IMG/VR virus record: IMGVR_UViG_3300012362_000001
Coordinates: 1-41,118 of that record
From: a virus
DNA length: 41,118 nucleotides
Strand: one strand, 5' to 3'
Every line of letters begins with the position of its first letter. The stretch's first letter is position 1. Position numbers and translations under genes: made by a program. Positions 2,553 through 39,110 of the stretch are shown piece after piece. The notes beneath the pieces were generated by a model. The model searched no databases, was not told the origin of the DNA, and saw only the letters and a program-made list of their open reading frames with translations.

Positions 2553-3995
2553 ATGGAACGCGAGCCGTCTAACGTCTTAGAGCTCGCCGCAGCGCTCGGT
2601 ATAAGCCTGTACGGCTGGCAGGAAGAAATCCTGTTCACGATTGAACGGGCGGCCAGCCAAACACGCCGTAAGCTGGCCGTACGCGCACCAAACGGCGTCG
2701 GCAAGACTCAGCGCATCATAGCGATATCGGTCATTAGGTGGCTTCAACGGTTCGCGAAGGGAAAGGTGGTTATCACGTCCCATGACCAACGCCAAATTGC
2801 ACACCAGCTTTGGCCAGCGCTACTCGCATTTCAGCAACATTTCCCATCCTGGGAATATCGAAACGCAGATGGTAGACAAACTATTACAACCCCAACCGGA
2901 GGACGTCTGCTCGCTTACACGACTTCGGACCCGGGGCGGGCCGAGGGCTTCCATAGCGACACTGATTCGCCGTTGCTCATTATCGTCGATGAAGCGAAGA
3001 GCATCGAGGCGAATATTATCAAGGCGATTGATCGCTGCTCCTACAACGTCCTATTATACATTAGCTCGCCTGGCTGGATGGAAGGTCCGTTTTACGATGC
3101 ATTCTCGAAACCGGGATTTATCCAGTTCCACGCTGGTCTCGCGGACTGCCCACATAAATCGAAGGAGCAGATTGAGGATATTAAGCGCACCTACGAAGGT
3201 GATCAATCCTTCATCGATTCAACCTTGCACGGCGAATTCATGCGACACCCGGATGGAGTGCAGTACGTCCTCGACCTGGTGGACGCTGATGGGGCCCAGC
3301 AAGCGCACATAGACAAGATCTACGGTGCACGCGTCGCAGGCGTTGACGTCGCTGCCGGGCGCTGCCAGAACGTAATTTGTAAACGGAACGGGAACCATGT
3401 CGAACGAATTCAAGCCTGGCGTGAGAAAGACACAAACGCTGCGGTTGGACGGTTTGTGCGGCTGTTCAATGATCTGGCTCTTAAGCCCGGGGACATCTGG
3501 CTGGACGTGGACGGGCTTGGCATCGGGTTCTACAACGACTTCGCAGCCGTGCAATGGCGCGTCTGCCAGTACCGCGGCGGGGGTAAATCTCCGCATCCCC
3601 GTTACGCGGATCTGAACTCGTACTGCTGGCATTCGACTGCGGACAAGATCAGGAAGCATCAGATCATCCTGCCGGACAACGCTATCCTCAAAGCGCAGCT
3701 GTGTGCGCGCAGGGTGCGCTACAAACCAGATGGCCGCCTCTGGCTTGAGAGCAAAGAGGACATGGCTGGGCGCGGGGTTGAGTCGCCGGATGTCGCGGAC
3801 GCGTTCTGCATCGCGTTCGGTGTCCAGCCTGCACAATCAACTTCGTGGGTTGAGCAAGAGAGCCGGTTTGCGGAAATAGCTAAACAACACGGCTGGCAAT
3901 ACAACCAGAGCGATGACCCTGATGAACCACGGACCCCAGGCGGGTACCAGGAAAGCACGGCTCTAGGGTCGATGGGTGTGCACAGTGAATGGTGA
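2553..3995 (+). CDS. terL: Terminase large subunit
   Basis: 480 aa. Walker A-like RAPNGVGKTQ and Walker B-like LLIIVDEAKS. The C-terminal RNase-H-like nuclease has acidic motifs VAGVDVAAG, WLDVDGLGIGF and SPDVADAF. Confidence 0.92.
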   Translation: MEREPSNVLELAAALGISLYGWQEEILFTIERAASQTRRKLAVRAPNGVGKTQRIIAISVIRWLQRFAKGKVVITSHDQRQIAHQLWPALLAFQQHFPSWEYRNADGRQTITTPTGGRLLAYTTSDPGRAEGFHSDTDSPLLIIVDEAKSIEANIIKAIDRCSYNVLLYISSPGWMEGPFYDAFSKPGFIQFHAGLADCPHKSKEQIEDIKRTYEGDQSFIDSTLHGEFMRHPDGVQYVLDLVDADGAQQAHIDKIYGARVAGVDVAAGRCQNVICKRNGNHVERIQAWREKDTNAAVGRFVRLFNDLALKPGDIWLDVDGLGIGFYNDFAAVQWRVCQYRGGGKSPHPRYADLNSYCWHSTADKIRKHQIILPDNAILKAQLCARRVRYKPDGRLWLESKEDMAGRGVESPDVADAFCIAFGVQPAQSTSWVEQESRFAEIAKQHGWQYNQSDDPDEPRTPGGYQESTALGSMGVHSEW

Positions 3996-4109
3996 AATCT
4001 ATGATGGGCCAATGTTCGAGGTCGAAAACCTACCTTACATGGTAGCGCCAATCTCACTTAGTCAATGTTTGTATGTATGGGAGAGAAACGTTTTTAAAAA
4101 GGTACTTAT

Positions 4110-4817
4110 ATGGCGCTGCTTTTAAACGGATCAACTGATTATCTAACGTTGTCATCGGCTTTACTGCCAAGTCTCGCAGCTACGCCGTTTACGTTCGCTT
4201 GCTGGGTAAAGCTCGCCTCTCTACCAGGCACAGCTCAAGCGATGATGTCACTATCTAAAACTGCAGGAGCAGTGAACATTTTTCAGGAACTTTACTGGGA
4301 TAACGCCAATAGCAAACTAACTGCAAGCGCATTTGATGGTACAACCTCAGGCCCCGCTGCTTCAACGGCAACGATAGCAGATACAACGTCCTGGCATCAT
4401 TGTTGCGGTGTGTTCACTAGTTCATCGAGCCGCGCGGTCTACCTTGACGGCGCCGCTGTATCAAGCGCCGTAGCCGTGGTTACCAGCGCAACTGTGCTAG
4501 GTTTGGGCGTTTCTTTCGCGGGTACTGCAACACCGATAAGCTTGATGAACGGCTCCATAGCGTTGCCATGTATTTGGAACATTGCGCTCACTCAGTCAGA
4601 TGTTAGCGCTCTTATTGGTGGCGGACCCGGAGGTAGAGGAACTGACCCGCGTAATATTCAGCCAAATGCTGTCATCTCATTTTCGCCATTAAAAGCAGCT
4701 CCATATATGGATATAGTGTCTGGATACAAGTGGACTGTCGCCGGAAGCCCTGCCCAGGTAGCTGATCCGTTCAACATTTTACATCAACCAATTACTCACG
4801 GAGGACTTGCCGAATAA
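4110..4817 (+). CDS. LamG / concanavalin-A-like lectin-fold protein
   Basis: 235 aa. LNGSTDYLTL...FTFACWVKL...WHHCCGVF...RAVYLDG matches the Laminin_G_3 jelly-roll pattern (recalled from the family consensus). Confidence 0.75.
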   Translation: MALLLNGSTDYLTLSSALLPSLAATPFTFACWVKLASLPGTAQAMMSLSKTAGAVNIFQELYWDNANSKLTASAFDGTTSGPAASTATIADTTSWHHCCGVFTSSSSRAVYLDGAAVSSAVAVVTSATVLGLGVSFAGTATPISLMNGSIALPCIWNIALTQSDVSALIGGGPGGRGTDPRNIQPNAVISFSPLKAAPYMDIVSGYKWTVAGSPAQVADPFNILHQPITHGGLAE

Positions 4818-4819
4818 TT

Positions 4820-5698
4820 ATGAACCGATTCCTATTATCTTTATTGCTCCTCATCGGGGTGCAACTGGCAAGCGCTGGGCCACCGTCGGGATACAAGCTC
4901 GTATTCCAATCTAACTTCAACGGCAGAGGCGGCAACTCAGGCGGTTGGTTGCCGCTTTCAGAGTGGGGGCCACTGCAAAACTATACATTAGGCAGCGAGC
5001 TCTGGAACCCGGAATTCATTGACCATTACCCAGATCGCCGGGATAACAGCCATTCGACTTTCTCTTCAACAACGGCAAGCCAAGGCTACGGCAAAATGAC
5101 GTGGACCCCGTATCATGCCAATAACGCGTGGTACACAGGTGCAATTGCGACTGTCGACCCGAACGGGACCGGGTTTCACACGCGCCCGCCGTTCTTCGTG
5201 GTGACTTACATGTCGATGCCGCTTGGCAGCTGGGCGTGGACATCAAGCTGGGGGACAACGATGAACAGGCTGCAACCAAACCAGAGCACCAACTCAGCAG
5301 AGATCGATTGGCCGGAACGCTGGAACAGCGAACCGAACCGGCCGATGCCATCTCTGATCTCTGAGTTCCACGCCAACACGCGCACACCGAGCGGCGCGGA
5401 TATCACGAGTTCACCAGCGTTCATTTATGATCCTGGGATGGCGTCGCAGTACGGCGAATTCTACAGCTTGCTGGTCGACCCGGTAACCGGGGTGCACGCG
5501 TACCTGGAATCGGCAACATGGGATGGGCACCCGGCGGGCGATTTCAGGGAAGTGTTCCATTGTCCGTTCCAGGCAGCCATGAACCAAGACTGGTATTTCC
5601 TGGTCGATTACGCCCTAGATGACCGGACCTGGACCGGGCAAGGTTGGACTGACCCAAAACCGATGTGGGTCAAAGCCTTCAATATCTGGAAGCCATGA
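4820..5698 (+). CDS. Secreted glycoside hydrolase family 16-like protein
   Basis: 292 aa with signal peptide MNRFLLSLLLLIGVQLASA. GH16-like landmarks are YKLVFQSNFNG, ELWNPEF, WYTGAIATV...MPLGSWAWTSSWG and the ExDxxE-type motif SAEIDWPE. Confidence 0.7.
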   Translation: MNRFLLSLLLLIGVQLASAGPPSGYKLVFQSNFNGRGGNSGGWLPLSEWGPLQNYTLGSELWNPEFIDHYPDRRDNSHSTFSSTTASQGYGKMTWTPYHANNAWYTGAIATVDPNGTGFHTRPPFFVVTYMSMPLGSWAWTSSWGTTMNRLQPNQSTNSAEIDWPERWNSEPNRPMPSLISEFHANTRTPSGADITSSPAFIYDPGMASQYGEFYSLLVDPVTGVHAYLESATWDGHPAGDFREVFHCPFQAAMNQDWYFLVDYALDDRTWTGQGWTDPKPMWVKAFNIWKP

Positions 5699-5865
5699 GC
5701 AGGAGAATTGAACTTGATTTTTTTATACAGAGCGAAGAGGGCGGTTTCGCTGCCTGCTGCTTCTCTCATGGCATTTTTACGCAGGGACAAAACGAGGACG
5801 ATTTACAGGGAAACATCCAAGATGCCGTTCGTCTTCACTTCGATGATTTCGAGGGGGACCAATGA
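5695..5865 (+). CDS. HicB-like / UPF0150-family small protein (56 aa)
   Basis: ATGA-coupled internal ATG of track ORF 5665..5865. IELDFFIQSEEGGFAACCFSHGIFTQGQNEDDLQGNIQDAVRLHF fits the HicB N-terminal (UPF0150) pattern. No HicA-like partner is adjacent. Confidence 0.55.
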   Translation: MSRRIELDFFIQSEEGGFAACCFSHGIFTQGQNEDDLQGNIQDAVRLHFDDFEGDQ

Positions 5866-6650
5866 ATAAATTATCTTGCGTACTTCTGCTGTTGCTAGCG
5901 CACATTGCGAATGCGCAAACGATCACAATTGGTGAAACTAATATCTTGCCAGTAGCGGACGGCGGAAACGGCAACCTGCTTTTAGTACAAGACGTTACAT
6001 TAAGCCGAACCGCCACGATTGGCAGCATTTCGTTCTATGTACGTACCGCAGGCGGCCACGTAAGGCTCGGGCTCTATGACGCGAGCGGCGCTAGCGGCGC
6101 AGCCGGTAAACTGCTTACCCAGAGCGCTGATACTGCGGTAACTGCCACGGGCTGGTTAACGTTACCTGTGCCTCCAGTATCGCTTACCCCTGGAATGTAT
6201 TGGCTCGCTTATTTTCCAAGCAGCGACGCTCTTGGGTTCTGGGTTGAAAACGCGAGCGGCCAAGCGCTCTTCGTTTCTTTGCCGTACGGTTCAATGCCGT
6301 CTGCTTTTCCTGGCTCGCCTATCGATACCACGGCGCACTGGAGTATGTACGCGACTTTGCAGGTCACACCTACGCCAACCCCTACACCCACGCCAACCCC
6401 GAGGCCGAGTCCTACACCTGGGCAAGTTGTGATTTCTTGGGCGCCTCCATCCACAGCTACAGGAAACAAGATTTTATACGGTACGACCCAAGGCGGGCCG
6501 TACCCGAACGTTGTAGATATCGGGCTTCACTACACGTACACGTTAACGGGTCTCATCAGCGGTGTTCACTATTTCGCCGTGACCGAGTCCTACGACGTTA
6601 ACGGCTTAACCAGTTGTTACTCGCACGAAATCTCGTTCGTTGCGCCATGA
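5862..6650 (+). CDS. Secreted protein: N-terminal beta domain, (TP)n linker, C-terminal FN3-like domain
   Basis: 262 aa with signal peptide MNKLSCVLLLLLAHIANA, linker TPTPTPTPTPTPRPSPTP and an FN3-like tail (VVISWAPP...YTLTGLISGVHYFAVTESYD). Confidence 0.75.
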   Translation: MNKLSCVLLLLLAHIANAQTITIGETNILPVADGGNGNLLLVQDVTLSRTATIGSISFYVRTAGGHVRLGLYDASGASGAAGKLLTQSADTAVTATGWLTLPVPPVSLTPGMYWLAYFPSSDALGFWVENASGQALFVSLPYGSMPSAFPGSPIDTTAHWSMYATLQVTPTPTPTPTPTPRPSPTPGQVVISWAPPSTATGNKILYGTTQGGPYPNVVDIGLHYTYTLTGLISGVHYFAVTESYDVNGLTSCYSHEISFVAP

Positions 6651-6651
6651 A

Positions 6652-6954
6652 ATGAATGTCACATCTAGTAGTGGATGGATGCGCCCAATCTATTGGAAAC
6701 CCTGGTGGAACGGTGAACCCACCGTGCTAGCGTTCCTTAAAGCGACAAACGACGCGCTTGAATGGAATCAGGATACTAAGGAAACAACCAGGATCGGCTA
6801 CGGCGTGTACGCGCTTATCCGGCAAGCTGAAGCGTTTATGGATAGCTACAAACCTCCATGGCGCGATTGCCCTTGTGAAATATGTTGTGCAGCGCGAACA
6901 CTGCAGCAGAACATTGAACGGCTTCGGGAACTAATGCACGCAGAGAATGGATAA
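6652..6954 (+). CDS. Hypothetical protein (100 aa)
   Basis: First ATG of track ORF 6640..6954, just after the upstream stop. Contains CPCEICC. Confidence 0.6.
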   Translation: MNVTSSSGWMRPIYWKPWWNGEPTVLAFLKATNDALEWNQDTKETTRIGYGVYALIRQAEAFMDSYKPPWRDCPCEICCAARTLQQNIERLRELMHAENG

Positions 6955-7186
6955 GGAAACAAAACAATGCACGAAATGTCTAAAGATTCTTCCACTGGAC
7001 AGTTTCCGGCTTCGCATGGACAAAGGGAAGCTCCGTCTCCGGTCGCGCTGCCGGGAATGCCACAGGCTAGAGGTCAGGGAATCCCGGGTGCGCAAGCTGC
7101 GAGTGACGGGGAGCTGGGAACCGGTCCTGACCATGCAACAACTGGAGGATCTATGCAATACCCTGCGGGAGAACAAGGTCATTTAA
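6947..7186 (+). CDS. Zinc-ribbon protein (79 aa)
   Basis: KQCTKCLKILPLDSF...RSRCRECH has two CxxC pairs with typical spacing. I prefer it to the overlapping ORF 6967..7374, whose N-terminal half is G/P/A/Q-rich and looks out of frame. Confidence 0.6.
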   Translation: MDKETKQCTKCLKILPLDSFRLRMDKGKLRLRSRCRECHRLEVRESRVRKLRVTGSWEPVLTMQQLEDLCNTLRENKVI

Positions 7187-7230
7187 GAATCCGGCAGAAG
7201 TGGTACAGGTTCATTTATCGCTCGACAATA

Positions 7231-7374
7231 TTGATTGGTATACTGCCTAGGGTTCCAGACCAGTACCATTCGTTTAGCGAAGGGTATAATCCAGGTGGAT
7301 TTTGCAATTGGGATGTACGCGGACCTTTTGATAGTGAGGAAGAAGCGAAACAGGACGGATGCAAGGAAGGATAA
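7231..7374 (+). CDS. Possible small ORF (47 aa, TTG start)
   Basis: 3' part of track ORF 6967..7374 lying in an otherwise unassigned 190-nt gap. The tail ...GFCNWDVRGPFDSEEEAKQ looks protein-like. TTG 7231 is the only conventional start. Confidence 0.25.
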   Translation: MIGILPRVPDQYHSFSEGYNPGGFCNWDVRGPFDSEEEAKQDGCKEG

Positions 7375-7379
7375 TCAGT

Positions 7380-7574
7380 ATGACGTTTGACGAATTATTT
7401 AAAGGCACCGTTTTCAAAAGCAGAACTCTATGGATAGACGGCAAGCGCTATTACGATGTGACGCGCGTAGACGGAGGACGCTATTTGATTAAAGAATGTG
7501 TGCGGCGCGGCATGGCGACTGGAGACGAAGAGATCGCCAAACGGTGCCCGGATTTCGCGGAGCTGAAATCATGA
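7380..7574 (+). CDS. Hypothetical protein (64 aa)
   Basis: ATG preceded by AAGGAAGG at about 9 nt. It is an internal start of track ORF 7359..7574. Confidence 0.6.
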   Translation: MTFDELFKGTVFKSRTLWIDGKRYYDVTRVDGGRYLIKECVRRGMATGDEEIAKRCPDFAELKS

Positions 7575-7954
7575 ATACACGCTGCACATGGGGCTGTGAA
7601 TGCGATCGATGCGCTGCGGTGCGTCAACGATGGCACGAAGCCGTTACGCTGCCGTACGATCTGCTTTTGTTGCCTGCAAGCTCGGGCGCAGCGGCCAGGA
7701 TAGGGCAAAGCCTGTCACCGTGGAGCATGGAACGCCGTGCGATGCATCACGAATGCATCAGCGCTGAAGACGAACTACAAACCCTAATCAGAGTCGCAGA
7801 GCGCGATAACAAAGAAGCGTATGTGATTATCGAAGAAAAGCGCGTTCCAACTGGTTCACATTCTCCGAGTGAAGGAGTCTTGTTCTCAAGGATTAACCGG
7901 TTCGAAATCAGCATCCAGCAAAGCGATAACCTCCTCGAGGAAACAAACGAATGA
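7571..7954 (+). CDS. Hypothetical Cys-rich protein (127 aa)
   Basis: ATGA-coupled internal ATG of track ORF 7496..7954. The N-terminus is MNTRCTWGCECDRCAAV. Confidence 0.6.
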   Translation: MNTRCTWGCECDRCAAVRQRWHEAVTLPYDLLLLPASSGAAARIGQSLSPWSMERRAMHHECISAEDELQTLIRVAERDNKEAYVIIEEKRVPTGSHSPSEGVLFSRINRFEISIQQSDNLLEETNE

Positions 7955-8190
7955 AATCAGATCCTTTCCACGGCGAATGGGTTAACCTTTATGACGAAGC
8001 AATAAAGCAGGGCGTCGAGTTCACGTTTTCGCTACGTAGCGTCCCAGATGATTGGAGTGAAGAGATTCGGATCACCGATATCGTGAACAGGGAAGTCTAT
8101 ATCGCCACAGCAGGCGTTATTTACGACAGCTTGATTGCTGGACTTGAAGCCAAAAGACAGAAACTGAAAGAAAAACTAAATGCAAATTGA
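7951..8190 (+). CDS. Hypothetical protein (79 aa)
   Basis: ATGA-coupled ORF with ordinary composition. Confidence 0.65.
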   Translation: MKSDPFHGEWVNLYDEAIKQGVEFTFSLRSVPDDWSEEIRITDIVNREVYIATAGVIYDSLIAGLEAKRQKLKEKLNAN

Positions 8191-8350
8191 ACTTGATGAC
8201 GACGGGACTGCTCATCTTTACGATGAGTCAGGAAAACATGTCGGCCATTTTGCCGATGAAGCGAGCGCCAAAAAATGGTCGAAAGAAACATACGACAGGG
8301 ATGGCATCGTTAAGAAGAAAGACGTTAAGAAGAAAAACGAAGACGCATGA
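8180..8350 (+). CDS. Hypothetical acidic/basic small protein (56 aa)
   Basis: Not in the track (under 60 aa). MQIELDDDGTAHLYDESGKHVGHFADEASAKKWSKETYDRDGIVKKKDVKKKNEDA. Its stop overlaps the next ATG (ATGA). It is more protein-like than the alternative-frame track ORF 8187..8387. Confidence 0.5.
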   Translation: MQIELDDDGTAHLYDESGKHVGHFADEASAKKWSKETYDRDGIVKKKDVKKKNEDA

Positions 8351-8775
8351 GCGTGTTGCACTCAGCTGGATTCGGGTGGGTCCCTGACGCGCTTATAGCC
8401 AGTGCAGGCAAAGGAGTGGCGTCGAACGCTGACTGGGGACCTTTTCCACAGGATCGGTACATCTGGGGTATCCAGGGGGATCTGTACACGAGCTTGGCCG
8501 TGCCACCAATGGTAGCGATTGACGATTACGCTAAACGCATCGCTGACATGGGGGTTACGGTCACCAACGCGCAAACTGGCGAGATCATCTTGCAAAAGGG
8601 CGTGGACCACTATGACAACGCACCGACGCTCAATGATCGTCCGCATTTCTTCCCGAGACCGTTCTTGCTCGCGAAAGGCCAAAGCCTTCACATGAGCGCA
8701 CACGCGGAAAACGGGTACGGCGGAACGTTCGGGTTCAATGCGTGCGTAATTGTCTTTTTCACCTACGAGCCATGA
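8347..8775 (+). CDS. Hypothetical protein (142 aa)
   Basis: ATGA-coupled ORF. The antisense ORF 8362..8808 is judged spurious. Confidence 0.65.
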   Translation: MSVLHSAGFGWVPDALIASAGKGVASNADWGPFPQDRYIWGIQGDLYTSLAVPPMVAIDDYAKRIADMGVTVTNAQTGEIILQKGVDHYDNAPTLNDRPHFFPRPFLLAKGQSLHMSAHAENGYGGTFGFNACVIVFFTYEP

Positions 8776-8897
8776 GCGCCGAGATACCGGACAGGCGCTA
8801 TATCCCAAATAACAATAGGTGCATTCACTGTGGCCGCCCTTGGGTTGCTTTCCCTTCTATCTGTCCTGATTGCGTAGAGGTTTGCTTGTGTCATTAG
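8772..8897 (+). CDS. Possible tiny zinc-ribbon ORF (41 aa)
   Basis: ATGA-coupled. RCIHCGRPWVAFPSICPDC gives CxxC...CxxC. It would overlap the 5' end of the portal ORF, so the portal may start at GTG 8888. Confidence 0.3.
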   Translation: MSAEIPDRRYIPNNNRCIHCGRPWVAFPSICPDCVEVCLCH

Positions 8898-10900
8898 AAA
8901 TCTTTAAACAGATCAAGTCCGATATCGAAGAGCGGCGCATGTGGGAGGACAGGCAAGCGACAGCGTACAAGCTCCGGTTTGGTCAAGTCAAGCGGCGCAC
9001 GAAACCCTTTAAAAACGCTGCGGATTACACCTGGCCGCTCGTGGACATGTACATCGAGAAGCAGAAACCTGCCTACGTCGAGCAGGCGCTCGGACCGGAG
9101 CTGATAGCTTCATTCTTCAGCAAGAACCCGCAAGGCGACGGATTCACGCACGCGGTTGCCGAGTGGTTCGATTATCGCGTAAAACAGAAGAGCAACTTCA
9201 TCAAGGCTCTTTACCACGTGATTGATCAGCACATGCAAGGTGGCAAAGGGTTCCTGAAGACCTACTGGGATTGCGATCTAAACTGTGTCCGGCACCAGAT
9301 GATCCCAGGGCCGCTCTTCGTCGTACCGCCGTGGACTGAAGAAATTGACGATGGATACTCGAAAGCCGACCGGGCGTGCCACATCATGCACATGTCGACG
9401 CTGACATACGAGCGGCTCGGGCAGACATTGGGGTACAATCTGGACGAAGATTTTATCAAGTCGATATCCGGACGCGGCGAAGAGAAGATGTACGAGCAGG
9501 CCAAGGAACTTAAGGAAGGTATCGCGTACCACAAGAAAGACGACATGATCGTTTTGTGGGAAGTCTACGAACGGTTGCCATCCGGCAAACTTAAGATCCA
9601 CACATTTAGCCCGATGCAGCCCGAAGAAAAGGTGCGTGATGATTTCATGTTCCCCTACGACCATGGAAGAATACCTATCGTGGCTTACGATTTTGAGATT
9701 ACTGATCCCGGATTCTACTCTACGCGAGGGGTATCGGAGATCCTGGCATTGCCGCAGAGCATCCTGAAAATGCTATTGGATATGCAGATGGATTACATGA
9801 TCTACTGCAACCGGCCGGTCTGGAAACCAGGGCCAACAAATCCAGGAGTAAATTACGAGAACCTCGAGATTGTTCCAGGCCAAGTGATCAACGCAGACGT
9901 AGTACCGCTTGAATGGCCGCAGCCCACAATCGACTTCTTCCAGGCACAAGAACAGATTCGTTCGGTCTGGGAACAGAGAATGGGATCGGCGGACTATGGT
10001 ATTGGGAACGAAGAGCAGCAAGGCGAGGGGCACAAGACGGCCACCGAGATTGTCCAGCTCGGCGCGGTCAAAGAGAGCACGGCAACACTAAAGGGCAGGT
10101 TCTTCGGCGGCTCGCTTACCGAGAGCCTGAAAATGCATTGGTCGCTTGAACTGCAATACTGCAAAAATGATCTGAAGTACTTCTATCAACGGGAATACAA
10201 GCAGCTCGATCAAGGAGCATTGCGAGATTATTACCAGCTTGAGGTCAATGGCGGGAAGGACGGATACTCGCGCGAGAAGCATCTCCAAAAACTGATTCAG
10301 CTTTGGCAAACGTTCCAGCAAAGCCCGAATGTAAACCTACCAGAGCTTGTGCGCCTAATCCTTGAGAATGTCGATACTCAACTTGCGAAAACGCTATTCG
10401 TTCCGACTGATGTTGGCCAGAACGATCAGATGGAAAAGCAGGCGAACGAGATTAACGCAATGAAGCTCGGTTTTAACCCGCAACCTGACCCTGACGACAA
10501 CCACATTGCGCATATCCAGGCCATTGAAGTATTTAAACAGTACGCGCGCGGCAACCCGCAGGCGCAGGTAGGACCGGATGTCCAGATCCGAATCATGCAG
10601 CACGAGGACGCGCATATCGCAGCCGAGAAACAAGAGAACCCGCAACAGTACAAGGCGAATAAGCCCATGCTGGACAAGATCACAAGCGACAATAAAGCGC
10701 TCGTTCACGCTATCGCTCGAACTGTTGAGCAAGCCCTCCGCCAGCAATCGCCAAATGGCGAACAAACATCAGCTGGACAGCCTGGGCCTCCGGGACCCCA
10801 ACCCGGCGCAACCCAGGTACCTGCTGCGCCTCCGCCAGGTCCACCTATTGGATCGCCCACAGCAGGCATGCAAGGTTCGCCTCCGAGAACCTTTGTCTAG
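8870..10900 (+). CDS. Portal protein
   Basis: 676 aa, the largest ORF between terminase and the scaffold/capsid pair. It has a Pro/Gly-rich C-terminal tail. The call rests on size and synteny. The start is uncertain (TTG 8870, GTG 8888 or ATG 8939). Confidence 0.8.
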   Translation: MRRGLLVSLEIFKQIKSDIEERRMWEDRQATAYKLRFGQVKRRTKPFKNAADYTWPLVDMYIEKQKPAYVEQALGPELIASFFSKNPQGDGFTHAVAEWFDYRVKQKSNFIKALYHVIDQHMQGGKGFLKTYWDCDLNCVRHQMIPGPLFVVPPWTEEIDDGYSKADRACHIMHMSTLTYERLGQTLGYNLDEDFIKSISGRGEEKMYEQAKELKEGIAYHKKDDMIVLWEVYERLPSGKLKIHTFSPMQPEEKVRDDFMFPYDHGRIPIVAYDFEITDPGFYSTRGVSEILALPQSILKMLLDMQMDYMIYCNRPVWKPGPTNPGVNYENLEIVPGQVINADVVPLEWPQPTIDFFQAQEQIRSVWEQRMGSADYGIGNEEQQGEGHKTATEIVQLGAVKESTATLKGRFFGGSLTESLKMHWSLELQYCKNDLKYFYQREYKQLDQGALRDYYQLEVNGGKDGYSREKHLQKLIQLWQTFQQSPNVNLPELVRLILENVDTQLAKTLFVPTDVGQNDQMEKQANEINAMKLGFNPQPDPDDNHIAHIQAIEVFKQYARGNPQAQVGPDVQIRIMQHEDAHIAAEKQENPQQYKANKPMLDKITSDNKALVHAIARTVEQALRQQSPNGEQTSAGQPGPPGPQPGATQVPAAPPPGPPIGSPTAGMQGSPPRTFV

Positions 10901-12493: not shown

Positions 12494-13561
12494 ATGCCAG
12501 TCACGATCCTTGCTGATAGACCGAACGAATTCGAGGTTTATTTCAGCCGCATGATGCTGGACCATGCAATCGACGAAGTGCACCTCGCCGATTTTGCCCA
12601 GCTAAGGCCTTTGCCGAAAAACAATGGGAACAACTCTGTTCGATTCTTTCGGATACCTATTGCGACCGCAGCCAATGTCCAGGCCGTTACCGAAGGTGTT
12701 CTGGTATCTGCCGCGCGGAAACTGGTCTTCGAGTTTGTCACGATCGGGCTTTCGCAATGGTACGATTTCGTGCAGGTATCTGACCTTTTGAATGATACGG
12801 AATTTAACGATACTGGCGAAGCGTGTTCAATCCAGTTCGGTGAAGAGGCAGCGCTCTGGTACGATCAGCAGATACGGGATAGAACTTGCAGAACCAACGC
12901 GCCGACGCCGACCGTTGCGCTGTCGACATTGAGCGCTCCATACGGTCTATTTAAACGCTACGTTGGTGGTGCAACCTCGCTTGCAACCCTTGACGCCGTA
13001 ACGACATCAGCGGCGGCATTGGCCATCAAGAACATTATCCAGGCGACTACAAACCTTCGGATCAATAAAGCGCCCAAGGTAAAGAATGGACCCGCTAAAG
13101 GAAGCTACGCAGCAGTCATCAGCCCGCACGGTCAAGCCGATTTATTCCTGGAGACGAACAACTCTGCATTCATCCAAGCGGATGCATTTTCACATGGCGG
13201 TAAACAGATCCGGTCCGGGTGGATTGATAACCTTTACGGGATCGGCTTCTTCCTTACCACTGCCCCGTTTATCGAAAACCTGGCGCAAGGCGAGGGCGTC
13301 TACTCGAACCTGAACGTCAACACACTGGCGGCAGGCGCAAGTATCTACTCGTGCACCGTGACCGGGAAGGACGCGTTTGGGGCTACGGCCCTGCAAGGCA
13401 ATACACCATGGAGTCCGCAAGTCATGGTGAACGGCAAACCGGATAAGTACGATGTTATCGGTCAATTCGTTAACTTCAGCTGGAAAGCGTTCGCCGGATG
13501 GGAAGTTTTGAACCCGATGTTCGGCATCACGCTTCGCCACAAATCGCAGTGGAACCTGTAA
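12494..13561 (+). CDS. Major capsid protein (HK97 fold, N4-gp56-like family by recollection)
   Basis: 355 aa directly after the scaffold. The N-terminal pattern ...FAQLRPLPKNNGNSVRFFR... and overall length fit phage major capsid proteins. Confidence 0.85.
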   Translation: MPVTILADRPNEFEVYFSRMMLDHAIDEVHLADFAQLRPLPKNNGNNSVRFFRIPIATAANVQAVTEGVLVSAARKLVFEFVTIGLSQWYDFVQVSDLLNDTEFNDTGEACSIQFGEEAALWYDQQIRDRTCRTNAPTPTVALSTLSAPYGLFKRYVGGATSLATLDAVTTSAAALAIKNIIQATTNLRINKAPKVKNGPAKGSYAAVISPHGQADLFLETNNSAFIQADAFSHGGKQIRSGWIDNLYGIGFFLTTAPFIENLAQGEGVYSNLNVNTLAAGASIYSCTVTGKDAFGATALQGNTPWSPQVMVNGKPDKYDVIGQFVNFSWKAFAGWEVLNPMFGITLRHKSQWNL

Positions 13562-14253: not shown

Positions 14254-14421
14254 ATGCCGTTGCACGAATCCAATGCGAGCGATTCAATTTACGCGCATTT
14301 CTGGTTCGTGCTCTTCGGCGCCCTGCTCATGACGATAATCGGTTGCGCTGCGGTGCTTGCAGCGCTCGTTACGTTCTGGGGTAGGACACTCGTTCGCGCG
14401 ATTGGAGGCCCACCGCGGTGA
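14254..14421 (+). CDS. Possible small membrane protein (55 aa)
   Basis: ATG directly after the upstream stop, and its own stop overlaps the next GTG (GTGA). TM segment FWFVLFGALLMTIIGCAAVLAALVTFW. Confidence 0.45.
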   Translation: MPLHESNASDSIYAHFWFVLFGALLMTIIGCAAVLAALVTFWGRTLVRAIGGPPR

Positions 14422-14723
14422 ACGGCATTGCCGAAATACTGGCCGCTGGGAAATGCCCTGGAATAATCGTCAGTGACGGCAAGACTGAACAACGCAAGCT
14501 GGAGGACCAGAGCGCGCGCGACATCCTAAAAACCTGCCGCTGGCTAGAAGAGCGCGACGGCTCCAGGTGGACAAACGGCATGAACTGCGATATCGGCCCG
14601 CGCGTGATCAAAGAAGTTTGGCAAAGCGAGCTCTCGGATCAGCGCAAGAATTCGATCACTGAACGTTATGACGATGCCATCGCGCGCTGCGAAGAAAAGG
14701 CGGCGAAACTAGAGGATACCTAA
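14418..14723 (+). CDS. Hypothetical protein (101 aa)
   Basis: GTGA-coupled ORF with ordinary composition. Confidence 0.6.
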   Translation: MNGIAEILAAGKCPGIIVSDGKTEQRKLEDQSARDILKTCRWLEERDGSRWTNGMNCDIGPRVIKEVWQSELSDQRKNSITERYDDAIARCEEKAAKLEDT

Positions 14724-24041: not shown

Positions 24042-25072
24042 GCTGGTTTGATACCGCCCTGGCTGCTTGGTACCGCTCTAAGGAGCAGGAGCGCGCTATT
24101 AACGCGCAGGGGATTGAGCAAGCAGGACAAGCTTTGACGCAAGGCTTGCAACAGGCCAGGCAGGACAATATCGCAAATCAAGTATCTCGATCGCTAGTAA
24201 ACTCCGGGGCTTATGCTGATCAGAACTCAGGTGCCAACGCGCCTCGGGCGGGACTAGTGAGCGCTGGCACAAATCCAATCACGGGCGCAGTAAATAGAGT
24301 AGCTGCGGGAGTACCGACGGCGGGAACTGCTCCTGTTGGCGGTGGCGGAGGCATGCTTGGATTCCAACTGCGCAACGCATTGGCTAACCAAGGCGTCGAG
24401 AGGGATCTCAAACGCGCCCAGATAGGCTATTACGGAGCGCACGGGGCCGCTGCATTGCAGGGTGCAGCGTCGAATGAATCTTGGCGCAAATCAGAACAGG
24501 ATCGAGCGGATGCTCAGGCCGCAGCTATTAGGGCCGCTACTGCTGGTGGAGGCCCTGCCGCGGCGAGGACTCAAGCGCAAGCGCAAAGAGATGCGCTGAT
24601 GCAGGCACAGAAGGACGCAGAAGCAAAAGCGCAGACACCGGAAACTCTAATGCGCGATTTTGACGTGAATCATGGGAAAGGCGCAGCTCAATCCTTTTAT
24701 GATGCATATACGAACAATACCGGAGCGCGAGGCGATTTCTCAGGTGGTAAATGGATCGGGAACCCGAACGGGCCGTTATTTACTGCAGACCCAGAGGCGC
24801 AGGCATATGGGCAACCTCCAAACGCGGCTGATATAAAAGCGGTTCCGATTACGGAGCTCGACGCTTACAGAACGAACTTACAAAAAGTTCAAGCAGCAGG
24901 CGGAAGGATTGTTCCGCCGATCGTAATGCCAGCACAAGCACCCGGACAGTCAGCACCAGCGCAAGGTGGGAGCGTTCCGACATTTCAAACTACTCAGCAG
25001 GCATTGCAAAGCGGACTTCCGCGCGGCAGCCCGTTCCAAGATCCAACTGGCACAATCCGATACATGCCGTGA
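24038..25072 (+). CDS. A/Q/G-rich protein (344 aa), internal-virion candidate
   Basis: GTGA-coupled. Low-complexity helical composition similar to 20636..22435. Confidence 0.7.
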   Translation: MSWFDTALAAWYRSKEQERAINAQGIEQAGQALTQGLQQARQDNIANQVSRSLVNSGAYADQNSGANAPRAGLVSAGTNPITGAVNRVAAGVPTAGTAPVGGGGGMLGFQLRNALANQGVERDLKRAQIGYYGAHGAAALQGAASNESWRKSEQDRADAQAAAIRAATAGGGPAAARTQAQAQRDALMQAQKDAEAKAQTPETLMRDFDVNHGKGAAQSFYDAYTNNTGARGDFSGGKWIGNPNGPLFTADPEAQAYGQPPNAADIKAVPITELDAYRTNLQKVQAAGGRIVPPIVMPAQAPGQSAPAQGGSVPTFQTTQQALQSGLPRGSPFQDPTGTIRYMP

Positions 25073-25073
25073 T

Positions 25074-27791
25074 ATGGCTGCAGGCGAAGTTCTTCTTAAT
25101 GGAGCGCAGTTAGATGATGGCGGGACAACCAGTCATGCTACTGCTCCAAACGTGCTCGATGGGAATTCTCTCACCTATTGGCATACTGATCCTCAGGCCA
25201 ATACTGGGTATGTCGGAATCGATGCTGGAGCATCGTGCTCACTTACGCGAGTAAGGTTGTCGGCATTTGGAGGCTCCGAGGACGCATTGGTTGGCGGGTT
25301 AGTGCAAGGCGGTTCGTCCAGCGCATTTGCGCAACAATTAGGATTTCAGCAGGCTAATGGCGTAGGAGTAAACGCCACCAATCAAACCAGTGTTCCAGTC
25401 ATCTTTACTGGCGTCCAAACCGCAGGAAATGCCAACATCATTTTCATTTTCAGCAGCGCTTCCGCGGTTATAAGCGGAGTCACCGATACTAAAGGTAACG
25501 TATATACGTTCTTGTATAGGGATAATGTCGCGTCTGGTGCACACGTATCTTGTTACATTGCCACTGGAATAGTCGCTGCCCTTGCTAATGCCAATACGGT
25601 TACAGTTTCCTTGTCAACTGCCAGCGATTATCCTACAGTATTCATATCTGAGTATTCTGGTATTTCCGGAACAGGTTTGGCCACAATAAATGCTCATTCG
25701 TCTAATAGCGGGACCGGTACAGCTATTGATTCTGGCAACATAACGACGACTAATCCAAATACTGTATTAGTGTCTATAGGTGGATTCGGTGATTCACCCG
25801 CAGTAAGCACTGGTCCAGGATTCATACTGAATAAAAACCTTTCTCCGTGGGGCGCGGTGATGGAAGAAAGGCCGGTAATAAGTACCGTTACATCGTCAGG
25901 TTCATTCACTATTAGTACTAGCCAAAGCTGGAATTGTACAGTGGCGGCGTTTAATTTGACTGGCGTATACGATCCAAATGCGTTCCTATTTGTCGCGGCC
26001 AGGCCGCTTACAGGAACCTTGTTAAACGAGTACTCAATTACAGCCGCTCCGCTATTTCGTTATTATCGTTATAGTGCCCCATCTGCCTCCAACGGCAACC
26101 TGGCTGATCTTGATTTAATCGTACAATACACGGCGGGTGTAACTGCAGCAGCGGTATCGCCAACCATACTGCCAACTGGCCGCTCTTTCGATTTGCCGAC
26201 AGTTATAACCCTTAGCAGCATAACAACGGATGCGGCCATTTATTACACCTTAGATGGCACCACGCCAACTGTTGGTTCGATTCTATATAATGCTCCGTTT
26301 GTATTGAGCGCCAGTGCCACACTTAAAGCTATAGCCGTTAGTCCAGGACTCACCAATAGTCGTGTAACGAGCACGAAGTTTAACATACCATCAAGTCTAG
26401 TGTCACTGAATAGTCAAATCGATGACCGAAATTATAAGACATGGGCTGTTGATCCCTTTTTTTTCCTAGATCCTAATAGTGGTTGGTGGTACATGTATGG
26501 AATCAACCTTGATTGTAACGGGATTGCTACATTCGGCTATCTAGGAGTTGATACATATAAATCTGCCGATTTGCGTAACTGGATATTCGTTAACACAGTT
26601 ATAGGTCCATCGCTTGGTACTCAGGTGAACAGTTCCACTTACTTCGCACGCCCTTGGGTGGCGTATAATGCATCTACTGCAAGATACGTCCTGTGGATTA
26701 ATTCTGCGAGTCGGCCAACTGTGTATACGGCTCCATCGCCAGAAGGGCCGTGGACGTTTGTTGCACAATATACCAGCTTAAATGGATGGATTAGCAATGG
26801 AGATCCGTGCTGGTTTTTAGATTCGGATGGAATTAGTGCATACTTGGTATTCACTTCTAATTTCAACGCTGTGTTCAATAAGCTCACGGCCGCATGGACT
26901 AATGTAGATGGAGTCAACTTTGCGTCCTATGATGTAGCATCGACATTTGGCGAACAGGGCGGCTCAGGAGACGGGACAAAATTAGATGGTCCGCACATGT
27001 TTAAGAGGGGAAATACCTATTTCTTCATGTCCAACGCGCAATGGAATTGGGCTCCTATGGTGAATTGCTACGCAACCAGCTCTAATCCTCTAGGGCCGTG
27101 GACAAATAAAGGGAACCCGTTTCAGGCGGTGCAGGGTGGCAACCCGGATAATTCTGTTGCATTTGGTGCTCAAAATAATTATCCAATATTCATTCCTGGA
27201 AGGAACGCATTTATCTATACTGGCGATGCGTACAATACTGGGCTACCCGGCACTGTCAGCACGTCCACTACGGCTAATTTCCAGGCATGCACGTTGTTTT
27301 ATCTTCCTATCATTTTTCCTACGGCGTCCACTATGTCCATAGCATGGAATCCATCATGGGCACTGGATAACGTATTCCCGACGTTATCGGGAGCTCCGGT
27401 TGCACCCAATAATCTAAAGTTGAGTACTTTGGGAAGTGTTACGGCAGGAATTAAGATCAGTTGGAATAATTCTGAACCGAATCCTCATGCGCTCTACGTA
27501 GATCGCTCTAGCGACATGCTTTGGACTATCGGAGTCAGATCCTATTCTGTGCCATTCGGAGCAACATCATTTACGGATACATTCGCGGTTCCTGGCCAAA
27601 AGTACATTTATCGCGTGCGAGCAGTTAACGCGAATGGCACCGCTAATTCGCCGGACGTAACGTCCGGAGGAACATTGGTGACATTCAGGCCATCTAAAGC
27701 AAGGCGGCTTTACAATCTGGAATTGCTAAAGGATGAAATGACGAAGGATGAATACGCCAAACGCGAAGCGTCGATTCTAAATGAGCGATGA
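25074..27791 (+). CDS. Tail spike or fibre with a GH43-like five-bladed propeller
   Basis: 905 aa from ATG 25074 (track ORF 24966..27791). The N-terminal discoidin-like segment is NVLDGNSLTYWHT. A chitobiase-C-like beta-sandwich follows (AAIYYTLDGTTPTVGSILYNAPFVLSASATLKAIAV). GH43-like blades are DPFFFLDPNSGWWYMYG, GDPCWFLDSDGISAYLVF and LDGPHMFKRGNTYFFMSN. The C-terminus is an FN3 domain. Confidence 0.85.
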   Translation: MAAGEVLLNGAQLDDGGTTSHATAPNVLDGNSLTYWHTDPQANTGYVGIDAGASCSLTRVRLSAFGGSEDALVGGLVQGGSSSAFAQQLGFQQANGVGVNATNQTSVPVIFTGVQTAGNANIIFIFSSASAVISGVTDTKGNVYTFLYRDNVASGAHVSCYIATGIVAALANANTVTVSLSTASDYPTVFISEYSGISGTGLATINAHSSNSGTGTAIDSGNITTTNPNTVLVSIGGFGDSPAVSTGPGFILNKNLSPWGAVMEERPVISTVTSSGSFTISTSQSWNCTVAAFNLTGVYDPNAFLFVAARPLTGTLLNEYSITAAPLFRYYRYSAPSASNGNLADLDLIVQYTAGVTAAAVSPTILPTGRSFDLPTVITLSSITTDAAIYYTLDGTTPTVGSILYNAPFVLSASATLKAIAVSPGLTNSRVTSTKFNIPSSLVSLNSQIDDRNYKTWAVDPFFFLDPNSGWWYMYGINLDCNGIATFGYLGVDTYKSADLRNWIFVNTVIGPSLGTQVNSSTYFARPWVAYNASTARYVLWINSASRPTVYTAPSPEGPWTFVAQYTSLNGWISNGDPCWFLDSDGISAYLVFTSNFNAVFNKLTAAWTNVDGVNFASYDVASTFGEQGGSGDGTKLDGPHMFKRGNTYFFMSNAQWNWAPMVNCYATSSNPLGPWTNKGNPFQAVQGGNPDNSVAFGAQNNYPIFIPGRNAFIYTGDAYNTGLPGTVSTSTTANFQACTLFYLPIIFPTASTMSIAWNPSWALDNVFPTLSGAPVAPNNLKLSTLGSVTAGIKISWNNSEPNPHALYVDRSSDMLWTIGVRSYSVPFGATSFTDTFAVPGQKYIYRVRAVNANGTANSPDVTSGGTLVTFRPSKARRLYNLELLKDEMTKDEYAKREASILNER

Positions 27792-38891: not shown

Positions 38892-39110
38892 ATGATCGAC
38901 TGGGACAAAGCTGAGATTCACGACATTCAGCGCTTCGGGAAATGGCTCTACTGGGCTGAGGAATGGGCCACGTTCAAGACTCAGACCAATGACGAGCTTA
39001 AGGAATCGTGGCGCTGTGAGCTCCGGTACGTCATGCTCGAGCAGGACAGGCTGCGCGAAGCGATCAACGCCCGGAAATGCATGTACACGAGCCGGGGACC
39101 GTCAATGTGA
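38892..39110 (+). CDS. Hypothetical protein (72 aa)
   Basis: ATG directly after the upstream stop. Confidence 0.55.
   Translation: MIDWDKAEIHDIQRFGKWLYWAEEWATFKTQTNDELKESWRCELRYVMLEQDRLREAINARKCMYTSRGPSM

Follow-up and report, generated by a model that had tools for sequence, protein, structure and literature searches.

The window, by which we mean the whole 41,118-nt stretch of DNA analysed here, derives from an uncultured soil phage with related clade genomes of ~41-kb, and no close GenBank phages were found for it. Positions 4110-6650 open a variable accessory region that is kept between terL and portal in this phage clade, and they hold four plus-strand ORFs (4110-4817, 4820-5698, 5665/5695-5865 and 5862-6650). 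The features on which the following analysis is based are:

2553..3995, + strand: large terminase, bounding the variable region on the left (480 aa; weak ATPase/terminase matches)
4110..4817, + strand: stand-alone LamG / ConA-like lectin-fold protein, 235 aa (Pfam Laminin_G_3)
4820..5698, + strand: divergent GH16-family glycanase-like protein, 292 aa (family profile and predicted fold)
4820..4876, + strand: predicted Sec (SPase I) leader of the GH16-like protein, MNRFLLSLLLLIGVQLASA (sequence heuristic)
5300..5317, + strand: predicted catalytic motif E161-I-D163-W-P-E166 of the GH16-like protein (ExDxxE, beta-bulge type; residues 161-166)
5695..5865, + strand: 56-aa ORF without recognisable family, joined to both neighbours by ATGA overlaps
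5862..5915, + strand: predicted Sec leader of the CBM/FN3 protein, MNKLSCVLLLLLAHIANA (sequence heuristic)
5916..6365, + strand: 150-aa beta-sandwich, CBM-like domain (DUF4082-like, below threshold)
6366..6422, + strand: (TP)n / PT-rich linker, residues 169-187 (read from the sequence)
6423..6650, + strand: FN3 domain (PDB FN3 sequence matches)
6652..8775, + strand: rest of the variable terL-portal region (~7 small ORFs)
6947..7186, + strand: Zn-ribbon/HNH-like ORF (PHROG endonuclease matches)
8870..10900, + strand: portal, right boundary (weak SU10_portal match, 4e-6)
24966..27791, + strand: GH43-containing tail protein, a virion-borne glycosidase (Pfam Glyco_hydro_43, 1.7e-12)

The preliminary description had presented the four genes as a tightly coupled set that splits the terL-portal pair. 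The ORFs and their overlaps are real: the LamG stop codon (TAA, 4815-4817) is followed by the ATG of the GH16-like gene at 4820 (TAAttATG), and the 56-aa ORF shares an ATGA with the GH16-like gene at 5695-5698 and another with the FN3-protein gene at 5862-5865. However, the tight coupling runs on past 6650 (TGA-a-ATG, 6648-6654), and the complete terL-portal gap measures 4.9 kb with ~12 ORFs. The terminase (480 aa) is 80% identical to a 500-aa gene of the related phage L001, and the portal shares 73% identity with that of L001 and 90% with that of L064; the content of 6652-8775 is not the same in these two relatives. Searches for Rfam families and tRNAs found none, and a PADLOC search for membership in a defence or exclusion system was negative. 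Paralogy of the leader-bearing ORF 897-1406 with 8347-8775 was considered and dropped as unsupported (E 0.39).

The first gene encodes a lectin-fold protein as initially proposed, matching Laminin_G_3 (PF13385) at 1.3e-19 over residues 6-166, with 71.3 bits against a gathering cutoff of 27.6 bits and model positions 1-151 of 151 covered. Its PHROG matches are LamG segments in virion structural proteins, and its homologues are found at 15915-16607 of L001 (structural module), at 426-1130 of L064 and among tail-fibre-like genes in L065. Because a leader peptide is absent and the copies in relatives sit within structural or tail-fibre modules, LamG is probably not secreted, at variance with its initial placement among secreted proteins; as a lectin, it is more likely cytoplasmic or associated with the virion. 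The gene has a GC3 of 0.424, which is 2 SD under the genome mean, and a dN/dS of ~0.14. A 19-nt inverted repeat around LamG is statistically unusual; it lacks conservation and is left unexplained.

Assignment of the second gene required a more sensitive approach. Single-sequence searches of its product against Pfam, PHROGs, NCBIfam and the PDB gave no matches, and the GH16 identity was reached only by building a 10-member family profile, which matched the GH16 laminarinases 2vy0 (2e-5), 5wut (8e-5) and 8va4 (1e-3). The AF2 model (pTM 0.64, pLDDT 58.8, which is moderate; residues 33-107 unmodelled) has a beta-jelly-roll (ConA-like) fold that superposes on solved GH16 structures, and its best 50 Foldseek matches in the PDB were all GH16 (E down to 8e-8, TM 0.4-0.65). 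The lack of a GH16 HMM hit had been named beforehand as counting against this assignment, and for Pfam PF00722 a hit is literally lacking at E<=1, both for the window protein and for every one of the 10 clade members, but profile and fold together override this result. The clade profile collected 228 matches that grade into PF00722 proteins; as 30/33 sampled relatives reached in this way match PF00722, the link of the clade to that family is a transitive one.

The ExDxxE motif noted earlier reads EIDWPE at residues 161-166 of 292 and aligns with EIDIME/EIDILE/EIDIAE of the solved enzymes 2vy0, 5wut, 8va4 and 3iln. E161, D163 and E166 are invariant in the 10 clade members and in 33 wider relatives, and in the alignment with the latter the two tryptophans flanking the motif, W140 and W144, are invariant as well. 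The strict PROSITE active-site signature of GH16, E-[LIV]-D-[LIVF]-x(0,1)-E-x(2)-[GQ]-[KRNF]-x-[PSTA], is matched by 5/10 clade members (EIDVIEMYGNAP) and fails on the window copy, which reads EIDWPERWNSEP. Near the active site, substitutions (WPAFWM to WTSSWG, EIDVIEMYGNAP to EIDWPERWNSEP) and a 6-aa insertion set the window copy and its 79% relative apart, so that activity or specificity may not be those of the other clade members. The gene is under purifying selection (dN/dS ~0.08). Taken together, profile, predicted fold and motif well support that the 4820-5698 product is a divergent GH16 member with an intact Glu-x-Asp-x-x-Glu.

The fourth gene encodes a modular protein of 262 aa in which a predicted leader is followed by the CBM-like beta-sandwich of 150 aa, the (TP)n linker and FN3; leader, linker and FN3 agree with the first description. 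The N-domain scored 21.6 bits against a DUF4082 (PF13313) cutoff of 28.4 and covered the model only in part, which is below membership. The linker coding region contains an 18-nt tandem DNA repeat (6366-6401). Although Pfam fn3 did not match the window protein itself at E<=0.1, PDB FN3 consensus and monobody sequences matched residues 169-254 at 1.5e-3 to 7e-3, PF00041 is recorded on the homologues P0011 and P0014, and the FN3 model is a beta-sandwich (pLDDT ~80-89) with tandem FN3 proteins as fold matches. In cellular proteins, the CBM-like N-domain is fused to GDSL esterase, DUF4038, Collagen_bind_2, PKD or FN3 domains, or occurs in tandem. It was found at 53 GTDB loci in more than 12 phyla, a spread that makes it uninformative for host identification; no GH16-like or LamG genes were linked to these cellular loci, and the context of a Methylocapsa locus gave nothing useful toward the host. 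The homologue P0014, which has the same architecture, is encoded among Wzm/Wzt(Wzt_C), glycosyltransferase, methyltransferase and epimerase genes, that is, in a bacterial O-antigen/ABC-transporter cluster.

Both the GH16-like and the FN3 protein were claimed to begin with Sec-type signal peptides, and the leaders bear scrutiny across homologues. Our heuristic looked for a positive n-region, a hydrophobic h-region of 7-15 residues and small residues at -3/-1. The GH16-like leader reads MNR-FLLSLLLLIGVQL-ASA↓G, with Arg3 in the n-region and an 8-residue hydrophobic peak of 3.31; its A-S-A stands before an invariant (A/G/S)PPxGY, and an equivalent n/h/c architecture with AXA site is present in 10/10 clade members, its character being kept and its sequence not. 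The FN3-protein leader reads MNK-LSCVLLLLLAHI-ANA↓Q (Lys3, hydrophobic peak 3.44), and an ANA↓QT-type junction is common to its phage and cellular homologues P0011, P0014 and P0035. Among the 48 window genes, those at 4820 and 5862 show the top N-terminal hydrophobic peaks that are accompanied by both an AXA site and a positively charged n-region; the ORFs at 897 and 1932 are also leader-like. Since the Sec-type leaders are conserved in character across homologues, export rather than virion assembly is the most economical reading for both proteins. The original proposal that the locus encodes exported, not assembled, proteins is thus supported for these two, but not for the leaderless LamG.

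Between them lies the 56-aa ORF, for which the label HicB-like had been suggested. It had no matches in Pfam, PHROGs, NCBIfam, PADLOC or the PDB at E<=10, and its single homologue, P0195 (82%), is located on a different phage-like contig and has no GH16-like gene nearby. Its neighbours here are the GH16-like and FN3 genes and not a HicA toxin partner, and none is recorded by P0195 either. With all libraries negative, an unrelated P0195 context and no HicA, we abandoned the HicB reading.

The GH16-like clade is small (10 members) and was found only on phage-like contigs, which come from soil or sediment-type metagenomes; no relatives were found in 185,579 GTDB species genomes, IMG/VR or GenBank phages. 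Identity to cellular GH16 proteins is only ~25-29%, which, together with the finding on phage-like contigs only, argues against recent capture from a host. The clade occupies at least five different phage backbones and positions. In L003/L080, the gene is directly 3' of the capsid gene and overlaps it, in L001 it lies elsewhere within the terL-portal gap, and in L064 the LamG and FN3-protein genes are adjacent without it. In the otherwise distant phage L002, it adjoins a homologue of the FN3-protein gene, and this pair in turn lies near the L002 homologue of the GH43 tail gene. The idea of one horizontally acquired island did not survive this comparison: sibling phages place the genes differently, and GC3 differs sharply between genes, with LamG and the GH16-like gene deviating in opposite directions. 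The segment 4110-6650 is therefore a set of four co-oriented genes of mixed origin and not a coherent island.

A glycosidase of a different kind is encoded in the tail region, where the expected GH43-like enzyme was confirmed: besides Glyco_hydro_43, the 24966-27791 product matches Fn3_assoc (1.8e-18) and CHB_HEX_C_1 (3.5e-16) in Pfam. When the larger ORFs throughout the window were searched with Pfam and PHROGs, no endolysin, holin or integrase was recognised, and no spanin family was recognised in the window.

The identities of the proteins are well supported, and from them we infer a biological role. We give about an even chance to the working model that these are late accessory genes and that their products, once exported, target a beta-linked glycan of the host envelope or matrix, complementing the GH43 tail enzyme. 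The four genes would be transcribed together with the late structural operon, for which the overlapping or near-abutting junctions speak; promoter-like and terminator-like sites in 4110-6650 were no more frequent than expected by chance. Before lysis, the two leader-bearing proteins would pass through the cytoplasmic membrane of the infected cell and reach the periplasm of a diderm or the surface of a monoderm host. There, the GH16 enzyme may cleave a beta-1,3/1,4-type host glycan, such as a periplasmic or capsular glucan or galactan, O-antigen or EPS, and the CBM/FN3 protein may bind the same kind of polymer. The glycan link is suggested by the O-antigen-type cluster around P0014 and by the fusion of the N-domain to CAZyme-type and esterase-type domains. 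The most likely benefit would be that receptor or matrix glycan is cleared from inside off the infected cell and its debris, such that progeny are not trapped and late-arriving phages are excluded; the virion-borne GH43 enzyme acting from outside and the exported GH16 enzyme acting from inside would be complementary.

A bolder version, which we put forward tentatively and regard as possible rather than probable, is that the always leader-bearing GH16 clade, found only on phage-like contigs, and its exported CBM/FN3 partner form an "inside-out" receptor-destroying system. Produced late and exported before lysis, it would strip or fragment the surface or periplasmic beta-glycan of the host, allowing progeny to escape from debris and denying competitors a site for adsorption. 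Such a system would match the virion GH43 depolymerase on the exported side and, among bacterial viruses, be comparable to release factors of the neuraminidase type; the repeated repositioning of these genes among siblings could then reflect selection that keeps the function while host glycans change.

One might instead propose that these are auxiliary metabolic genes (AMGs), and that an exported laminarinase-like GH16 and its CBM/FN3 partner digest environmental polysaccharide, for example soil fungal or plant beta-glucan, thereby feeding the infected host and raising phage yield. The GH16-like gene has viral flanks (terL, portal), and a close host-derived origin is not seen, with no relatives in GTDB genomes. 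The soil or sediment-type origin of the contigs and the laminarinases as nearest solved relatives are consistent with this, as are the frequent GH16 beta-1,3-glucanase annotations in soil viral catalogues (133 genes; bioRxiv 10.1101/2024.12.20.629349) and the signal peptides on ~5% of prophage CAZymes (PMC13507307). We nevertheless consider it unlikely. The clade was found only on phage-like contigs and is only ~25-29% identical to cellular GH16. As part of the late structural operon in a phage without recognisable integrase, the gene would have little time to pay off nutritionally, and a virion GH43 enzyme and an O-antigen-cluster-type protein occur alongside it. The finding of the clade on phage-like contigs only, its presence on at least five backbones and the pairing in L002 favour a role in the phage cycle over recently captured host metabolism.

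The overlap with the capsid gene in L003/L080 and the weak similarity of the FN3-protein N-domain to a capsid cement protein speak against export and fit a role in the virion. The hydrophobic N-termini would then remain uncleaved, and the CBM/FN3, GH16-like and LamG proteins would sit on the capsid or tail as adhesins that bind or cut glycans. Phage particles commonly bear FN3/Ig-like decorations, the genes lie within the structural block, and the LamG homologues lie within structural and tail-fibre modules. Still, we judge this quite improbable: virion proteins assemble in the cytoplasm, yet every homologue, cellular secreted ones included, has a canonical n/h/c leader and an AXA site, and gene position varies among close relatives, unlike that of core structural genes. 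The resemblance to the cement protein of cyanophage A4, gp25, recovered in both fold and profile searches, is weak (9jwb_Z, TM 0.36-0.45, sequence E 1.9). The absence of a recognised endolysin from the window leaves room for a function in lysis, in which the exported GH16-like enzyme would degrade a non-peptidoglycan envelope glycan for efficient host disruption, similar to a Sec-delivered endolysin or mycobacteriophage LysB. Holin and spanin families are likewise unrecognised, signal-peptide endolysins are known, and the BFVD fold matches include Gordonia phage proteins annotated "Lipase". This is the least probable of the readings in our estimation, as GH16 is not known to act on peptidoglycan, the gene has no membrane or holin-like neighbour and varies in position, and in soil viral contigs lysis cassettes lie near 30% of GH16 genes compared to 85-90% of true endolysins.

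Compared with the GH16 laminarinases (P. furiosus LamA 2vy0, T. maritima 3azx, ULam111 5wut and CapGH16_3 8va4), the clade shares the beta-jelly-roll and the ExDxxE beta-bulge motif with W-x3-W ahead of it, and most members also share WPAFW and EIDVIEMYGNAP. However, identity is only 12-16%, no clade member reaches PF00722, and the clade is set apart by a conserved, unmodelled N-terminal segment (~75 residues); the window copy differs further by WTSSW, EIDWPE and the 6-aa insertion, and the clade is seen only in phage contexts. Viral genes for GH16-fold enzymes, described as AMGs, are known from soil viromes, chloroviruses, giant viruses and "laminarinase-like" Siphoviridae entries in BFVD. 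While a minority of phage CAZymes carry signal peptides, members of this clade always bear a leader; they are too divergent for the standard HMM, move between positions in related phages and, in two lineages, come paired with a GH43 tail enzyme and a CBM/FN3 protein predicted to be exported. As GH16 genes of soil viruses and leader-bearing phage CAZymes have already been reported, this locus is unusual but not unprecedented.

Tailspike depolymerases are likewise phage enzymes acting on host surface glycans, the predicted target of the GH16-like protein, but they are large, multi-domain particle components without a leader. The GH16-like protein does not fit this type (292 aa with leader, predicted to yield a 273-aa single-domain enzyme after cleavage), whereas the GH43 protein at 24966-27791 does. 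Phage proteins with Sec leaders that protect progeny or exclude superinfection, working on the receptor or entry pathway within the infected cell's envelope, include the T5 lipoprotein Llp and T4 Imm/Sp. Any parallel to the GH16-like protein would be a functional analogy only, since these are small blockers and not enzymes and have no sequence or fold relation to it.

If the exported GH16 enzyme and its CBM/FN3 partner indeed act on the host's own envelope glycan, phages would attack surface polysaccharide from outside with tail enzymes and from inside, the latter via the host Sec pathway, which would be a rarely documented release or exclusion strategy. Should these be ordinary AMG-type or decoration proteins, they would add one more example to a known class. 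In practice, the clade is a predicted source of small, naturally secreted beta-glycanases that Pfam PF00722 misses, so that CAZyme censuses of soil viruses could count too few such genes where they depend on comparable family HMMs.

Regarding the CBM/FN3 protein, A4 gp25 (PDB 9jwb chain Z; PMC12002296) is an auxiliary cement protein with a CBM beta-sandwich that weakly resembles the N-domain, and both share a short pattern around "L-F-V-TA-GN-R-G-Y". The two differ in what surrounds this domain, which is an N-terminal capsid anchor in gp25 and a predicted secretion leader, PT linker and FN3 in the window protein.

Almost all genes of this nearly complete phage genome (~41 kb) lie on the + strand. 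ORF calls recovered the four ORFs of 4110-6650 exactly as the preliminary description had claimed, among the following landmarks:

2553-3995, + strand: terL
4110-4817, + strand: LamG ORF, 235 aa
4820-5698, + strand: GH16-like ORF, 292 aa
5665/5695-5865, + strand: small ORF, 66 or 56 aa
5862-6650, + strand: FN3-protein ORF, 262 aa
8870-10900, + strand: portal
12494-13561: major capsid
24966-27791, + strand: GH43 tail protein
27781-32586: 1601-aa protein

The tight coupling ascribed to the four genes was likewise found, with TAA-tt-ATG, ATGA and ATGA as junctions. This packing goes on past them (TGA-a-ATG at 6648-6654, where the next start lies one base past the stop) and is nothing peculiar to the four ORFs. 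The terL-portal gap measures 4.9 kb and holds about 12 ORFs in total. Promoter-like and terminator-like sites showed no excess over shuffled controls, and the window contains no Rfam families and no tRNA. Among the larger ORFs across the window, Pfam and PHROGs searches revealed neither an endolysin nor a holin, spanin family or integrase.

Single-sequence searches with the GH16-like protein gave no match in Pfam, PHROGs, NCBIfam or PDB sequences, and only ten clusters of homologues (48-100% identity) were found among 5.8 billion proteins. The profile of this ten-cluster clade, whose alignment consensus reads VWPAFWMTT ... NSAEIDVIEMYGNAP, matched solved GH16 laminarinases (2vy0, 2.1e-5; 5wut, 7.9e-5; 8va4, 1.2e-3; and 3iln), and the clade's EIDVIE lined up with EIDIME, EIDILE and EIDIAE of solved GH16 enzymes. 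An AF2 model (pTM 0.64, pLDDT 58.8, with residues 33-107 modelled poorly) was compared with the PDB, where all top 50 matches were GH16 structures (best E 8e-8), and with BFVD, where it matched chlorovirus, pithovirus and 'laminarinase-like' phage proteins. When the clade profile was searched exhaustively against 1.84 billion representatives, 228 matches were obtained at E<=1e-3; PF00722 proteins made up 30 of the 33 that were aligned. Only W140, W144, E161, D163 and E166 were invariant among the aligned relatives, which upholds the ExDxxE motif described earlier. Because profile matches, fold matches, the transitive PF00722 link and the invariant residues agree, we conclude from sequence and model that the protein is a divergent GH16-family member with its predicted catalytic triad in place. 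The proposed enzyme identity thus holds at the level of profile, fold and aligned motif, but not at that of the Pfam GH16 model, which no clade member reached. Drift around the cleft has turned WPAFWM into WTSSWG and EIDVIEMYGNAP into EIDWPERWNSEP in the window copy and its 79% relative, and has inserted 6 residues. The window copy therefore fails the strict PROSITE-type GH16 signature, which five of ten relatives satisfy. The dN/dS between the window copy and its 79% relative is ~0.08, and the gene is therefore functional.

The two strongest N-terminal hydrophobic peaks among the 48 window genes belong to 4820 and 5862 (8-residue Kyte-Doolittle means of 3.3 and 3.4), and both are accompanied by a basic residue 3 and an A-x-A site. 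Each of the ten GH16-clade proteins begins with a leader (17-33 residues) that keeps the n/h/c character but not the sequence, and that ends in small residues directly before an invariant (A/G/S)-P-P-x-G-Y; this combination is what a real signal peptide should show. The ANA/QT junction of the FN3 protein recurs in phage homologues and in secreted cellular homologues. The signal peptides attributed to these two proteins are thus supported by n/h/c architecture, A-x-A sites and homologues, and we infer that both carry cleavable, predicted Sec-type leaders.

Other leader-like N-termini were seen. One belongs to a 169-aa protein (897-1406; MSRMFIALGFLWALDANA/G), which matched no family and shows no detectable paralogy with 8347-8775. 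A 49-aa ORF at 1932-2081, overlapping the upstream 107-aa ORF (1612-1935) by ATGA, combines a leader with a lipobox-like AFSS/C and a C-terminal PPPP; its product is possibly a lipoprotein of the o-spanin type, in which case the host would be a diderm.

In the FN3 protein, the leader (residues 1-18) is followed by a 150-aa beta-sandwich N-domain (19-168), a (TP)n linker (169-187) and FN3 (188-262), so that the predicted signal peptide, linker and FN3 described previously are all present. The N-domain scored under threshold against DUF4082. In cellular proteins, it is PT-linked to GDSL esterase, DUF4038, Collagen_bind_2, PKD or FN3, or occurs in tandem copies, and on sequence and model it appears to behave like a carbohydrate-binding module. 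MAGs from over 12 phyla (GTDB loci L011-L063) encode this domain at 40-53% identity, the phyla being CPR, Verrucomicrobia, Chloroflexi, Planctomycetes, Alpha-, Gamma- and Deltaproteobacteria, Actinobacteria, Acidobacteria, Gemmatimonadetes, Spirochaetes and Bacteroidota, and so does Methylocapsa polymorpha RX1. The module is exchanged widely, and no Pfam model fits it. Fold searches returned CBM-plus-FN3 and tandem-FN3 proteins, including cyanophage A4 capsid chain Z, which the sequence profile also matched weakly. Chain Z corresponds to gp25, an auxiliary cement protein described with a CBM fold and an N-terminal anchor (PMC12002296); the N-domain weakly resembles gp25 in its CBM-like fold, whereas the N-terminal anchor is gp25's own.

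A homologue of the same architecture, P0014, is encoded on a bacterial contig of 101 kb, where it is surrounded by two pairs of Wzm/Wzt (Wzt_C) ABC transporters, glycosyltransferases, FkbM-type methyltransferases and a sugar epimerase, in what is by its gene content a predicted O-antigen/polysaccharide export locus. Another homologue of the FN3 protein, P0011, is located upstream of the terminase in an unrelated lambda-like phage. At L064 1366-2424, homologues of window 6652-6954 and of the FN3 protein form one uninterrupted ORF, in the order opposite to the window and with the leader-like segment (MRTLLLFLLLAPKLFA/QT) internal; an internal start, a fusion or an assembly artefact could account for it. 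Just downstream of the N-domain module on two IMG/VR contigs (L073 7040-9229, L075 7043-9247) we observed genes for a ~730-aa protein with a clear signal-peptide-like N-terminus (MMKKLGTVLFAALAAAMAVALHA/QP), a candidate for another exported phage protein.

The remaining two ORFs departed from the preliminary description. LamG covered the full Pfam Laminin_G_3 model (1.3e-19), in agreement with the proposed lectin fold, but a hydrophobic leader was looked for at its N-terminus and not found, contrary to the proposed secretion. Its 45% homologue in L001 lies not beside terL but inside the structural block, flanked by homologues of window 14418-14723 and 14723-15088, and a 31% relative in L065 is surrounded by tail-fibre-like genes. 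A dN/dS of ~0.14, at a dS close to saturation, shows LamG to be under purifying selection; LamG is more likely a particle-associated or cytoplasmic lectin-fold protein than a secreted one. The 19-nt arms of an inverted repeat (TATATGGCGCTGCTTTTAA; 4107-4125 and 4689-4707), which differ by one mismatch, enclose most of its ORF, where shuffles predict 0.03 such matches. The right arm coincides with the sole + strand promoter-like site, and neither L064 nor L001 conserves the repeat. The 56-aa ORF, described as HicB-like, matched nothing in the PDB or any library searched, and its single homologue (82%), encoded by a different phage-like contig, is distant from any GH16-like gene and lacks a HicA-like partner; the HicB identity thus has no support.

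The preliminary description had treated the four ORFs as one secreted glycan-gene island. The arrangements in relatives are as follows.

Arrangement of homologous genes in related and distant phages.
L001 (terL 80%, portal 73%, capsid 92%): GH16-like gene in the terL-portal gap with other neighbours; LamG in the structural block
L064 (portal 90%): LamG, 80-aa gene, 6652-6954 homologue, then FN3-protein homologue; no GH16-like gene
L003/L079, L004, L080 (window's lineage, capsid 91-92%): GH16-like gene overlaps the capsid gene end
L002 (distant phage): FN3-protein homologue (56%) directly upstream of GH16-like gene; GH43 tail gene nearby
L005, L008 (other phage backbones): GH16-like gene in further differing contexts

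These differing positions, together with opposed GC3 values (0.676, +1.9 SD, for the GH16-like gene; 0.424, 2 SD under the genome mean, for LamG), rule out a coherent island. Low GC3 is common to LamG and the GH43 tail gene (0.429), i.e., 0.42-0.43 against a mean of 0.55, and the contrast of these two with the GH16-like gene suggests separate, possibly recent, exchange histories. The GH16 clade was absent from 185,579 GTDB species genomes, IMG/VR and 50,697 GenBank phages, and its context was phage-like in every case seen. Because of the relatives' arrangements, the GC3 contrast and the phage-only contexts, we regard the LamG, GH16-like and FN3-protein genes as individually mobile accessory genes, persistently kept and reshuffled in position within the phage group. 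The GH16-like and FN3-protein genes are linked in two distant lineages. A small Zn-ribbon ORF (6947-7186) inside the variable gap matches phage HNH/endonuclease VII-type PHROGs (1.7e-7); a homing-type nuclease could add to gene shuffling.

As described earlier, two glycosidase folds occur in this genome, which holds a virion GH43 enzyme (24966-27791) besides the GH16-fold protein, and the four ORFs belong to the late gene block and lack signals of their own. We favour, at about an even chance, a role in the phage cycle: the GH16-like and FN3 proteins would be made late, exported before lysis and target a beta-linked envelope or matrix glycan of the host; the enzyme would rid infected cells and debris of receptor or matrix glycan and perhaps exclude other phages. 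This role is preferred because the clade has evidently been resident in phages for a long time, is spread among backbones and travels with glycan-targeting virion genes. That it amounts to an exported 'inside-out' receptor-destroying system is a tentative suggestion.

Laminarinase similarity, and a literature on viral GH16 and leader-bearing CAZymes, would suit a soil auxiliary metabolic gene for external beta-glucan use, but a late-operon gene with phage contexts only fits this poorly, and we consider it improbable. Virion decoration would agree with the structural-block location and the gp25 resemblance; the leaders are, however, canonical and common to secreted cellular homologues, making this still less probable. 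The absence of a recognisable endolysin among the larger ORFs of the window could point to a lysis accessory, the reading to which we give least credence; GH16 is not known to act on murein. Moreover, GH16 genes of soil viruses show no enrichment around lysis cassettes (bioRxiv 10.1101/2024.12.20.629349).

Viral GH16 genes and some leader-bearing phage CAZymes were already known: GH16 accounts for 133 of 149 beta-1,3-glucanase annotations in the Global Soil Virus Atlas (bioRxiv 10.1101/2024.12.20.629349), and signal peptides are predicted on ~5% of prophage CAZymes (PMC13507307). New are a divergent GH16 clade that was seen only on phage-like contigs, always bears a predicted leader and is missed by the Pfam GH16 model, its recurrent pairing with a predicted-exported CBM/FN3 protein, and its positional mobility among sibling phages.

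Near the right end (38009-40047), a protein with a Lar-like restriction-alleviation domain (8.7e-9) adjoins an MT-A70 methyltransferase fused to DUF3102 (2.2e-24), and both genes have putative anti-restriction functions.
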